Origin: a bacterium
GTDB lineage: Bacteria; Hinthialibacterota; Hinthialibacteria; Hinthialibacterales; Hinthialibacteraceae
Direction: 5' to 3'
NCBI GenBank assembly: GCA_963662285.2
Contig: CAXXMV010000002.1
Location: 1,344,001-1,408,000, forward strand
DNA length: 64,000 nucleotides
Below, piece by piece: positions 26,114-28,085 of this stretch (positions are counted from its first letter, which is position 1; every line of letters begins with the position of its first letter). Made by a program: the position numbers and the translations under genes. The notes under the pieces are model-generated. The model was not told the DNA's origin and did not search any database. It was given only the letters and a program-made list of their open reading frames with translations.

Positions 26114-26722
26114 TCATACAGTCCACTGGCAGAAATTCTTTAGCATACGCAGCCCTACCGGGCCGCTTTTTTCGAGGTGAAATTGGGTGGCGATCAGGTT
26201 GTCGCGCGCTACTGCGCTGGTAAAGCGGATGCCGTATTCCGTCTCGCCAATGGTGACTGTAGGGTCGCTGGGCGCGCTGTAGAAGGAATTTACGAAATAG
26301 AAATCTGAATTATCAGGTACGCCTTCAAACACGGGATGCGAGCGCACCTGCTTTACCTGGTTCCAACCGATTTGGGGGATTTTAAGTTCTGATGCGGGGA
26401 AGCGTTTCACTTCTCCCGGCAGGATGCCCAGGCATTGCGCGTCGTCTTCTTCACTTTTATCAAACAGTATCTGAATGCCAATGCAGATCGCCAGAAAGGG
26501 CTTTCCCTTTTCCAAGACCTGCTGTTTTACAATTTCCGTTAAACCGGTTTGGTTTAGAACATCCATCGACGCCCCGGCCGCGCCGACTCCGGGAAAGATG
26601 ATCCGGTCGGCCTTATCAATGGCTTCGGGGTTTCGGGTGATCTCGCCATCGAAGCCCAGGTGATTAACCGCTCGCAATACGCTGGTCAGGTTTCCGCCTT
26701 CATAATCGATGATTGCAATCAT
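26114..26722 (-). CDS. hisH: Imidazole glycerol phosphate synthase glutaminase subunit
   Basis: IIDYEGGNLTSV, FPGVG, AICIGIQ (catalytic Cys), PQIGWN, QFHLEKS. Confidence 0.93.
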   Translation of the reverse strand: MIAIIDYEGGNLTSVLRAVNHLGFDGEITRNPEAIDKADRIIFPGVGAAGASMDVLNQTGLTEIVKQQVLEKGKPFLAICIGIQILFDKSEEDDAQCLGILPGEVKRFPASELKIPQIGWNQVKQVRSHPVFEGVPDNSDFYFVNSFYSAPSDPTVTIGETEYGIRFTSAVARDNLIATQFHLEKSGPVGLRMLKNFCQWTV

Positions 26723-26750: not shown

Positions 26751-27893
26751 TTAACGCAATTTAACGGTTTTCATGACCTGGCGCAGGGTCTCAAGGTTCT
26801 TTTGCAGTTCAGGATTCTTGAAATGCTCCCGAACCGGCGCCAGTAGATCGGCGATGCTTTGGGCGAGAGCTGTTTTAAGGTCCATGGGGTGAAGTTGCTT
26901 CTCACCGAAACAGGTGGTCAGTTCTTCCAGGGTATTAAAGGTCAAATCGCCGCCCCATTCTTCTTTACGCTTGATCTCCAGCGGGCCGCGTCCTAACGCA
27001 TAGACCAGATGCTGCGCCCAATTCAAGACTGGATTAAAGTCGGTCTCGCCTTCAGGGCAGAATGCTTTTTTCATTTTTTTGGCGATGACGTCCGGTTCGT
27101 CGGTAATGAAGACGGCGGTTTCGGGTTTCGACTTGCTCATCTTCATGGCCATCCAGACTTCCTGCATACGGTCGGGATCGATAGGCCACATAGGCGGTTT
27201 GCCCAAACCGATCAAAAGATGGTGATGCACCGCCATAGGCGTAAGCTGCTCGCCGGATTCGGACATAAGCGGCATGGTCTTCATCTGGTTGGCTACATCC
27301 AGCGCTACTACATGGGCTTTTCGCTGATCGGTGCCCGCCTGCGCCAGATTGACGCCCAGCGCGTAGATATCCGCCACCTGCATGGGTGGGTAAACCAATT
27401 TGGCGAAATCAACCGACTCGCCTTCAGCGCGTCCCAGAATGGTGATGGAGCGCATGATGCGTTTTAGGGTGGTGTTTTTACATACTTCTATAAAAGCAGT
27501 CCAGTATTCAGGACGTTTCTGGTATAGATCAGAACCCAGGACGACATTCAATTTATCCGGGTCGCCGCCAACCGCCTTGAGGCAGCTTTTCAGCCCTTCG
27601 GCGAAATAGCCATAGGCGAATGAACGGATCTGTTCGATGTCGCCGCCCAGTTTGTCGTTGATCCAACTGTGCCAGTCGGCCAGAAAGAGAGTACATTCCA
27701 CTCCGGCTTTCTGAAAATCAGCCACTTTAGCCATGCATTGGATTCCGGTGCCAAGATGAATCTCGCCGGATATTTCAAATCCAATGTAATGGCGCAACGG
27801 GATATCTTTTTCCAGATACTCGCGTAAACGGCTTTCGGTTAGTACTTCCTGGGTATTGGCTTTGATAAGGTCGAATCGGTCGTTTATATTCAT
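26751..27893 (-). CDS. tyrS: Tyrosyl-tRNA synthetase, archaeal/eukaryote type
   Basis: YIGFEISGEIHLG (HIGH), FLADWHSWINDK, YPPMQVADI, GTDQRKAH, KMSKS, LHPMDLK; 380 aa with no bacterial C-terminal S4-like domain. Confidence 0.92.
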   Translation of the reverse strand: MNINDRFDLIKANTQEVLTESRLREYLEKDIPLRHYIGFEISGEIHLGTGIQCMAKVADFQKAGVECTLFLADWHSWINDKLGGDIEQIRSFAYGYFAEGLKSCLKAVGGDPDKLNVVLGSDLYQKRPEYWTAFIEVCKNTTLKRIMRSITILGRAEGESVDFAKLVYPPMQVADIYALGVNLAQAGTDQRKAHVVALDVANQMKTMPLMSESGEQLTPMAVHHHLLIGLGKPPMWPIDPDRMQEVWMAMKMSKSKPETAVFITDEPDVIAKKMKKAFCPEGETDFNPVLNWAQHLVYALGRGPLEIKRKEEWGGDLTFNTLEELTTCFGEKQLHPMDLKTALAQSIADLLAPVREHFKNPELQKNLETLRQVMKTVKLR

Positions 27894-27925
27894 GGGGTTT
27901 AGAGTCCGGGGTAGAAAAGAAGAAA

Positions 27926-28008
27926 TCCAGGGGGTTGGGTTCGAACCAACGAAGGCTTGCGCCAGCGGGTTTACAGCCCGCCCCCTTTAGCCACTCGGGC
28001 ACCCCTGG
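27926..28008 (-). tRNA. tRNA-Tyr(GUA) with C1:G72, A73 and long variable arm; CCA not encoded
   Basis: Manual fold: acceptor CCAGGGG/CCCCTGG plus A; D-arm with AGTGG; anticodon arm GCGGG-CTGTAAA-CCCGC; V-arm GGC-GCAA-GCC; T-arm GTTGG-TTCGAAC-CCAAC. Confidence 0.97.
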
Positions 28009-28085
28009 AAAGAATTCTTACTTTGTTATGAGGATTATAATTTTCTTCCGTTAGCGCAGAAATTCAAGGGGTGGAAACCCAGAAA

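Follow-up and report, generated by a model that had tools for sequence, protein, structure and literature searches.

The identity of tRNA-Tyr is a textbook example of a rule dividing bacteria from archaea and eukaryotes, and the orthogonal pair most widely used in genetic code expansion is built on it. Archaeal tRNA-Tyr identity was nevertheless reported in bacteria of the candidate phyla radiation (CPR) by Mukai, Reynolds, Crnkovic, and Soll (2017, Life 7:8; PMC5370408), who interpreted the switch as lateral transfer from archaea together with adaptation of the bacterial tRNA. The lineages concerned are Parcubacteria, Microgenomates, Dojkabacteria, and Katanobacteria, and the main text names no Omnitrophota, OP3, or non-CPR bacteria (PMC5370408). 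Here, we analyze a 64,000-nucleotide stretch of DNA (hereafter the window) from a bacterium of the phylum Hinthialibacterota, in which a C1:G72 tRNA-Tyr gene immediately precedes tyrS, the gene for an archaeal-type tyrosyl-tRNA synthetase (TyrRS). An earlier note on this DNA had mentioned that such switches were reported in uncultured bacteria, which the CPR study confirms. A 2023 review, in the sections drawn on here, still states G1-C72 as the bacterial rule (PMC9976931). The literature searched, which did not cover subscription papers, contained no report of a tyrosine identity switch outside CPR. The sections that we drew on of the paper naming the phylum, which separates OLB16/Hinthialibacterota from Omnitrophota, do not mention aminoacyl-tRNA synthetases (PMC9324843). 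The kind of switch is already known from CPR; this lineage and the conserved, putative tRNA-tyrS operon appear to be unreported.

The pair lies on the minus strand of a 1.85-Mb contig, amid bacterial housekeeping genes, in an 8-contig assembly of 7.29 Mb (44% G+C, 92.5% complete). Its two members are as follows.

27926..28008, minus strand: tRNA-Tyr(GUA), 83 nt, supported by Infernal with RF00005, ARAGORN, the covariance model R1, and alignment
26751..27893, minus strand: tyrS, archaeal-type TyrRS, 380 aa, supported by NF006330, PF00579, a structure match, and invariant columns

As a whole, the data are best explained by an archaeal-type TyrRS and a rewired native tRNA that serve as the sole tyrosine pair and were swapped in once, on the stem of the bacterium's family. 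We give this reading a probability of about 85%.

Infernal aligned the tRNA gene end to end with Rfam model RF00005 (53.5 bits, E 1e-10) and placed C1, G72, and A73, and ARAGORN called tRNA-Tyr(gta) at 27925..28009, with one extra base per end relative to Infernal. With U8 kept in register, CCAGGGG/CCCCTGG forms the acceptor stem, which gives C1:G72, C2:G71, and A3:U70, followed by A73. The D stem has 3 bp (CCC/GGG), the anticodon loop is CUGUAAA, and no CCA is encoded. The variable region of 14 nt, UGGCGCAAGCCUUC, contains the 3-bp hairpin GGC-GCAA-GCC. Thus, the acceptor stem, first pair, and discriminator base that the earlier note had described were read both in the sequence and by Infernal, and the long variable arm was likewise seen in the sequence. 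The archaeal identity set (C1:G72, A73, GUA) is present in this tRNA and in 18 genomes of its family. The gene differs from an archaeal class I body, which has a short variable region, in both its variable region and its 3-bp D stem; of the bacterial class II features, it has the long arm, the 3-bp D stem, A73, and GUA and lacks G1:C72. The base 5' of C1 (28009) is U in 17 of 17 parsed genes of the family and is mostly U in other families too. This U could pair with A73 in the precursor, and ARAGORN lengthens the stem by that pair (27925/28009).

The synthetase was scored on NCBIfam profiles with cut-offs of 220 bits for NF006330 (PRK08560, archaeal/eukaryal-type TyrRS), 113.8 bits for TIGR00234 (tyrS), and 176.75 bits for TIGR00233 (trpS, for tryptophanyl-tRNA synthetase [TrpRS]). 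It reached 404.7 bits on NF006330, over profile positions 1-335 of 342, and remained under the cut-off on TIGR00234 (107.7 bits, through its N-terminal half alone, profile positions 2-229 of 406) and on TIGR00233 (84.7 bits). In comparison, the bacterial tyrS products of sister families extend to positions 382-403 of the TIGR00234 profile. Pfam returned PF00579 alone at E ≤ 0.01 (133.7 bits, residues 32-351), so the enzyme has no S4-like domain, in agreement with the earlier note. The four motifs that had been singled out as archaeal in type, HYIGFEISGEIHLG, ADWHSWINDK, DQRKAH, and LHPMDLK, are all in the 380-aa open reading frame (ORF). KMSKS (residues 251-255) and the HIGH-type EIHLG (near residue 46) are invariant in 19 aligned sequences, namely the window's and those of 18 relatives. 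The best solved relative is 2cyc_A (375 aa), which we take to be Pyrococcus horikoshii TyrRS; it aligned over residues 1-372 with an E value of 3.5e-127. The top TyrRS chains ranged from 3.5e-127 to 1e-36, the TyrRS chain 1h3e was at 3.9e-4, and the first TrpRS-named chains were at 7.9e-6. The window synthetase is an archaeal-type TyrRS and neither a bacterial TyrRS nor a TrpRS. The grouping with either of these, which the earlier note had named as fatal to its proposal, was not seen: the scores are under both cut-offs, and the tree described below nests the enzyme among archaeal TyrRS.

No other tyrosine system was detected in the genome. The window tyrS is the only PF00579 match in 7.29 Mb, no further gene matched the bacterial tyrS profile, and tblastn with the bacterial TyrRS of relatives found no trace of one. 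The tRNA-Tyr is the only one among 44 tRNAs; with our own tRNA-Tyr covariance model R1, it scored 105.4 bits and was the sole match above 70 bits in the whole genome, the next being Ser and Leu tRNAs. The search for a second, bacterial-type tyrS or a G1:C72 tRNA-Tyr that the earlier note had called for was therefore made in this genome, and none was found. The combination that marks a bacterium with archaeal Tyr identity of the kind described by Mukai et al. (2017), an archaeal-type TyrRS with a C1-G72 tRNA-Tyr and no bacterial TyrRS in a bacterial genome, is found here. Together, the tRNA-Tyr and the TyrRS of the window are the only tyrosine-charging system of this bacterium.

Other components of the translation apparatus also came up in these searches. 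A TrpRS gene of any type was not found in the assembly, and a bacterial-type tRNA-Trp (A1:U72, G73) is present at C6:1804497-1804571, so an assembly gap is probable. An 86-nt tRNA-like call by ARAGORN with a two-base anticodon (tRNA-???), at G000 C6:52554-52639 (minus strand), is most likely a false positive.

To place the pair within its phylum, we used 35 species genomes, 20 from the window's family (f1; 18 genera) and 15 from 5 other families. The phylum's records are labeled Hinthialibacter/Omnitrophota; one close homologue is filed under "Candidatus Hinthialibacter sp." and others under the older Omnitrophota label. Every f1 genome had a low-scoring PF00579 match similar in strength to that of the window enzyme (20/20), and none had a high-scoring match of the bacterial TyrRS type (0/20). 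In 18 of the 20, the TyrRS was 72-87% identical to the window's, and the same 18 had a same-strand C1:G72 tRNA-Tyr just upstream of tyrS; the contigs of the other two, G009 and G018, stop within tyrS or 22-110 nt short of it, so that the upstream region is missing. In the 18 genomes, the acceptor is CCAGGGG/CCCCTGG, once CCAGGGA/TCCCTGG, always with A73, a long arm, and no CCA. Since an equivalent acceptor end precedes tyrS in 18 separate genomes, chance and an assembly error at C1 or G72, the latter a doubt raised by the earlier note itself, are ruled out. A bacterial-type match of TrpRS strength was present in 18 of 19 f1 relatives, and the two representatives tested pass TIGR00233.

The other families have the bacterial pair. 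A strong second class Ic match was present in all 15 genomes outside f1, and the five sister-family tyrS genes tested (f2, f3, f4, and f6) scored 316-424 bits on TIGR00234. BLASTP at 1e-3 with the window TyrRS gave no match to the ORFs at the sister families' bacterial-type matches. A G1:C72 tRNA-Tyr, with the acceptor GGGGGGA, GGGGGGG, or GGAGGGG, was found in 14 of the 15 genomes and not in G027. All 14 of these genes are solitary within 1.5 kb, and BLASTP revealed no TyrRS-like ORF near them in 10 loci checked. As f2 and f3 belong to the same order as f1, we place the swap on the f1 stem; within the phylum, the replacement is one event.

We then compared the tRNA bodies in an alignment of 27 tRNA-Tyr genes of the phylum (17 from f1 and 10 G1:C72 genes from other families). 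Overall, 99.7% of the cells pair, and changes at 1:72, 2:71, and 3:70 affect both partners at once. All 17 f1 rows have CG at 1:72 and 2:71, where the 10 other rows have GC. Over columns 4-81, the window tRNA is identical to the G1:C72 tRNA-Tyr of G030 (f6) at 67 of 76 positions, and its identity to members of its own family is 59-69 of 76-78. The acceptor of f3 and f4 is GGAGGGG/CCCCTCC, so that two flipped pairs yield the f1 stem CCAGGGG. These comparisons support the view that the window tRNA-Tyr has a body of the phylum's own sequence type. The earlier note had proposed that the first pair of the native tRNA was rewired; the native-type body agrees with this, and the extent of the change needs correction, as two pairs (1:72 and 2:71) and not only the first are flipped.

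Bacterial TyrRS grips the long variable arm via its S4-like domain. According to the sections drawn on of two experimental studies, archaeal TyrRS contacts the acceptor tip and the anticodon only, makes no contact with the tRNA core, and aminoacylates tRNAs whose arm is long or whose core is unusual as long as they have C1-G72 and A73 (PMC6337575, PMC7590224), and its activity is lost when C1-G72 or A73 is replaced (PMC6337575). We propose that the window enzyme would read the archaeal identity set created by the flipped acceptor pairs (GG...CC to CC...GG). By homology with the archaeal TyrRS of those experiments, the long arm would be a passenger, retained on the tRNA and no longer read. Through their adjacency, the two matched genes would be expressed and inherited as a unit. 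The replacement would have taken place once, on the stem of f1, after which the resident bacterial tyrS and G1:C72 tRNA would have been lost. Cross-charging of the window tRNA by a bacterial host TyrRS is a real possibility, because its long arm, A73, and GUA, all of which are read by bacterial TyrRS, have been retained; this qualifies the earlier note's candidate natural orthogonal pair.

The transcription order on the minus strand is tRNA-Tyr(GUA), a 32-nt spacer, tyrS, and a hisH-like gene. Besides the pair itself, the locus has the following features.

27894..27925, minus strand: T-rich spacer of 32 nt from A73 to the tyrS ATG, from the sequence and a consensus scan
26114..26722, minus strand: hisH-like glutamine amidotransferase, from the ORF list and named by reading its translation, starting 28 nt past the tyrS stop
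28034..28039, minus strand: TATAAT hexamer 25 nt 5' of C1, read from the sequence, a possible -10 element by inference only

With A73 at 27926 and the ATG at 27893, 32 nt separate the tRNA from tyrS, which has the same orientation, exactly as noted earlier. In 17 measured f1 genomes, this spacer is 21-210 nt. A consensus scan of the 32-nt spacer found no terminator-like or promoter-like site on the minus strand. In 16 of 20 f1 genomes, the hisH-like gene directly follows tyrS on one contig, which makes it a conserved neighbor outside the pair proper. The conserved order tRNA-tyrS(-hisH) and a spacer without a terminator-like site suggest a single transcript, and the tRNA-Tyr and tyrS are thus probably transcribed together and then cut apart. 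The TATAAT hexamer was not flagged by the promoter scan, and its position is not kept among the 17 f1 genomes. Genes upstream of the cassette vary within f1, a 532-aa membrane protein being shared with the closest relative only. In G003 (f2), hisH comes immediately after a divergently oriented neighbor, as judged from the ORF list only. An empty-site comparison of the G003 and f1 neighborhoods demonstrated no clean insertion site.

We examined the origin of the enzyme among the best 80 of 587 TyrRS loci in species genomes. Nine of these are from f1, and most others are from DPANN and Asgard archaea (52-60% identity). Eleven are labeled as coming from other bacterial groups, namely Chloroflexota (five, from Anaerolineae/Aggregatilineales), Planctomycetota (three), Dormibacterota (one), and others (two). 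A careful 41-row tree, with which further quick trees agree in outline, recovers the f1 TyrRS as monophyletic (99/97). Their closest group consists of Chloroflexota, Dormibacterota, and L169 rows (91/86); two further Planctomycetota rows (85/63) and Micrarchaeota (89/83) follow in turn. This group of f1, bacterial relatives, and Micrarchaeota lies beside DPANN and Asgard rows, with Thermococcales outside, and a cluster with a Daviesbacteria-named CPR sequence is apart from f1 (100/96). In our reading, the f1 TyrRS is of archaeal origin, and this origin is separate from that of the single CPR cluster included in the tree. The phylogeny would fit a single transfer into bacteria with later spread from phylum to phylum, or else repeated transfers from one archaeal donor that was not sampled. 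The cross-domain transfer proposed in the earlier note is thus upheld by a clade nested among archaeal TyrRS and by sister families that keep the bacterial pair; a route directly from an archaeon is qualified by the bacterial nearest relatives.

Related enzymes of the same subtype are encoded at L155-L160, L167, L100, L104, and L169 (Chloroflexota, Dormibacterota, and Planctomycetota). G035, the genome of L156, has three class Ic matches, the archaeal-type TyrRS and two stronger ones that fail bacterial tyrS and may be two TrpRS. The D arms of the short-arm tRNAs of L156 and L167 are closest to the tRNA-Cys of their own genomes (18/20 positions). The TyrRS of a "Caldisericia bacterium" (P0339) is almost identical to a Woesearchaeota sequence (L117), with very short branches, which points to misbinning or a very recent transfer. 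We did not count it as a bacterial TyrRS case.

Because the nearest TyrRS relatives are non-CPR bacteria with a tRNA-Tyr directly 5' of tyrS, the enzyme or the whole cassette may have arrived through a bacterial intermediary and not directly from an archaeal donor. An alternative history is therefore that f1 received a ready-made tRNA-tyrS cassette from an already-switched bacterium. The function would be the same, the tRNA would not be the recipient's own, and the long arm would be the ancestral state of the cassette or a product of recombination with the resident tRNA. The bacterial grouping of the nearest relatives (91/86 in the careful tree, 96 by the SH-like approximate likelihood ratio test [SH-aLRT] in a quick tree) speaks for this history. 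So do L156, L167, and L169, at which a short-arm tRNA-Tyr bearing C1:G72 as well as C2:G71 is directly 5' of tyrS; no tRNA-Tyr was found within 1.5 kb of tyrS at the archaeal loci among the best 80 of 587. In addition, none of five bacterial genomes with a related TyrRS has a bacterial tyrS above the cut-off (0/5). On the other hand, the cassettes of L156, L167, and L169 carry short-arm tRNAs, and the window tRNA body resembles a G1:C72 tRNA-Tyr from elsewhere in the phylum (67/76) no less than it resembles f1 members, with an acceptor two flips from that of f3 and f4. The clade support is moderate, L167 and L169 are on long branches, and L169 comes from G037, a genome flagged unpublished. We consider the import of a ready-made cassette unlikely on balance, with a chance that still deserves attention.

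A second alternative is that the enzyme is indifferent to the first pair, like human mitochondrial TyrRS, and that the flip to C1:G72 was neutral or hitchhiked. A TyrRS without 1:72 specificity is known (PMC9976931, in the sections drawn on; cited in PMC5370408). Against this, TyrRS type and first pair match in all 32 phylum genomes in which both were seen (18 C1:G72 and 14 G1:C72), although these are not independent trials because the switch is one event within the phylum. The match recurs in three other bacterial lineages, and archaeal TyrRS is reported to lose activity once C1-G72 or A73 is replaced (PMC6337575). Indifference to the first pair is thus quite improbable. Finally, it is hardly credible that the locus encodes a TyrRS-like paralogue of different function, or sits on a misbinned archaeal fragment, and that the real bacterial TyrRS was left unassembled: a 92.5% complete assembly without a detected TrpRS gene leaves some room for this, but the locus sits amid bacterial housekeeping genes on a 1.85-Mb contig, bacterial tyrS is found in 0 of 20 f1 genomes while the second class Ic match is in 15 of 15 others (tyrS in the 5 tested), and the product is a full-length protein with KMSKS that can be aligned from end to end with a solved TyrRS and whose cognate tRNA is attached.

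Several points weigh against the reading that we prefer, a native tRNA rewired for an archaeal-type enzyme in a single swap. In-place mutation of the native tRNA and import of a ready-made cassette both fit the data. Bacterial tRNA-Tyr bodies are much alike across phyla, and support for the all-bacterial TyrRS clade is moderate (85/63 to 91/86) and not starred. Essential genes can be missing from this assembly, as it is 92.5% complete and TrpRS was not found; for this reason, the absence of a bacterial tyrS leans on 19 relatives. One f1 genome, G006, has a G1:C72 tRNA-Tyr on the 1.7-kb contig C410 (L081:121-205, minus strand), within a Thr-Tyr-Gly tRNA cluster, as well as the C1:G72 cassette, and has no bacterial tyrS. 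Since the other 14 G1:C72 tRNA-Tyr genes are solitary within 1.5 kb, we think that the G006 copy is a binning contaminant, with a relic as the alternative. As for expression, the grounds on which we infer cotranscription are two, the conserved adjacency and the absent terminator-like site. A search of sequencing runs listed no RNA data set with the locus; only two contig sets contained the full stretch, both from one sample that may be its source. A consensus scan found no sigma-70-like promoter 5' of the tRNA on the minus strand, and the 17 f1 genomes searched share no pair of hexamers at a constant distance 5' of the tRNA. No RNase Z equivalog was found in the genome (best match, 30.2 bits; cut-off, 292.95), and RNase Z was dropped as the enzyme releasing the 3' end of this CCA-less tRNA-Tyr.

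The related bacterial loci allow a broader and tentative extension. The tRNA-Tyr(C1:G72)-tyrS unit could be a self-sufficient identity cassette that moved between at least four non-CPR phyla (the window's phylum, Chloroflexota, Dormibacterota, and Planctomycetota) and displaced the resident pair each time. The long-arm tRNA of f1 would then be an early or hybrid stage on the way to short-arm tRNAs, the end point of the series, as the arm has lost its reader. We hold this to be doubtful at present.

A separate observation concerns tryptophan in G001 (f4), which keeps its bacterial tyrS. The TrpRS of this genome scored best on profiles of the PRK12285 trpS subfamily (314.6 bits, under their cut-offs), which we take to be of archaeal/eukaryal type, and it scored 241.7 bits on TIGR00233, above the cut-off (loci L069:1903-3111, minus strand, L070, and L208). 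Its tRNA-Trp has G1:C72 with G73, versus A1:U72 with G73 in four other phylum genomes, and a fragment of class Ic, which contains an in-frame TGA, is present at C1:138758-139105. The TrpRS and tRNA-Trp of G001 may mark a second identity shift within the phylum, though a partial one, and the phylum may be prone to such swaps.

The locus breaks the tRNA-Tyr identity rule in a genome of free-living size outside CPR, which indicates that the switch extends beyond that radiation. In addition, it provides a natural experiment within one phylum, in which one family has switched and its sisters have not, with tRNAs that differ by little more than two flipped pairs. Such a before-and-after comparison bears on how an essential synthetase gets replaced across an identity barrier and on the fate of a recognition element, the long arm, once it is unread. 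The conserved tRNA-synthetase operon suggests how a pair stays together and spreads.

Several known systems share features with this pair. The TyrRS/tRNA-Tyr of Methanocaldococcus jannaschii serves as the standard orthogonal pair when the genetic code is expanded in Escherichia coli. The window pair resembles it in enzyme class and identity set (C1:G72, A73, and anticodon), and the M. jannaschii enzyme binds the acceptor tip and anticodon and not the core, according to the sections drawn on (PMC6337575). M. jannaschii combines a class I short-arm tRNA with a 306-aa enzyme (1j1u_A), whereas the window has a class II tRNA and an enzyme of the 375- to 380-aa form. For code expansion, the locus provides a long-arm C1:G72 scaffold already proven by nature in a bacterial translation system, but its orthogonality in E. 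coli is doubtful because the tRNA keeps the arm bound by bacterial TyrRS. The solved enzyme 2cyc_A shares the length class and motifs of the window TyrRS. Its host is an archaeon with a short-arm tRNA-Tyr, unlike the long-arm tRNA of the window. Like the window pair, human mitochondrial TyrRS breaks the domain-of-life rule for the 1:72 pair; as described in the sections drawn on, it is of bacterial type, keeps the S4-like domain, and accepts both pairs (PMC9976931), whereas in the window the enzyme type itself was replaced.

The nearest parallels remain those of CPR. In the CPR tRNA-Trp(A73)-ORF1-TrpRS-A operons, as probably in the window, a tRNA of foreign identity is in one operon with a class Ic synthetase of foreign type (PMC5370408). 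Those operons serve tryptophan, contain an extra ORF, and usually exist beside a normal bacterial pair, whereas the window pair stands alone. The CPR tyrosine pairs share with the window an archaea/eukarya-type TyrRS in a bacterium and a C1-G72 tRNA-Tyr, often with a bacterial variable arm (PMC5370408). In contrast to them, the window pair resides in a 7.3-Mb genome of a non-CPR phylum, its switch is fixed in one family with unswitched sisters, its TyrRS clade is apart from the Daviesbacteria-labeled cluster, and its tRNA gene is joined in a probable operon with tyrS.

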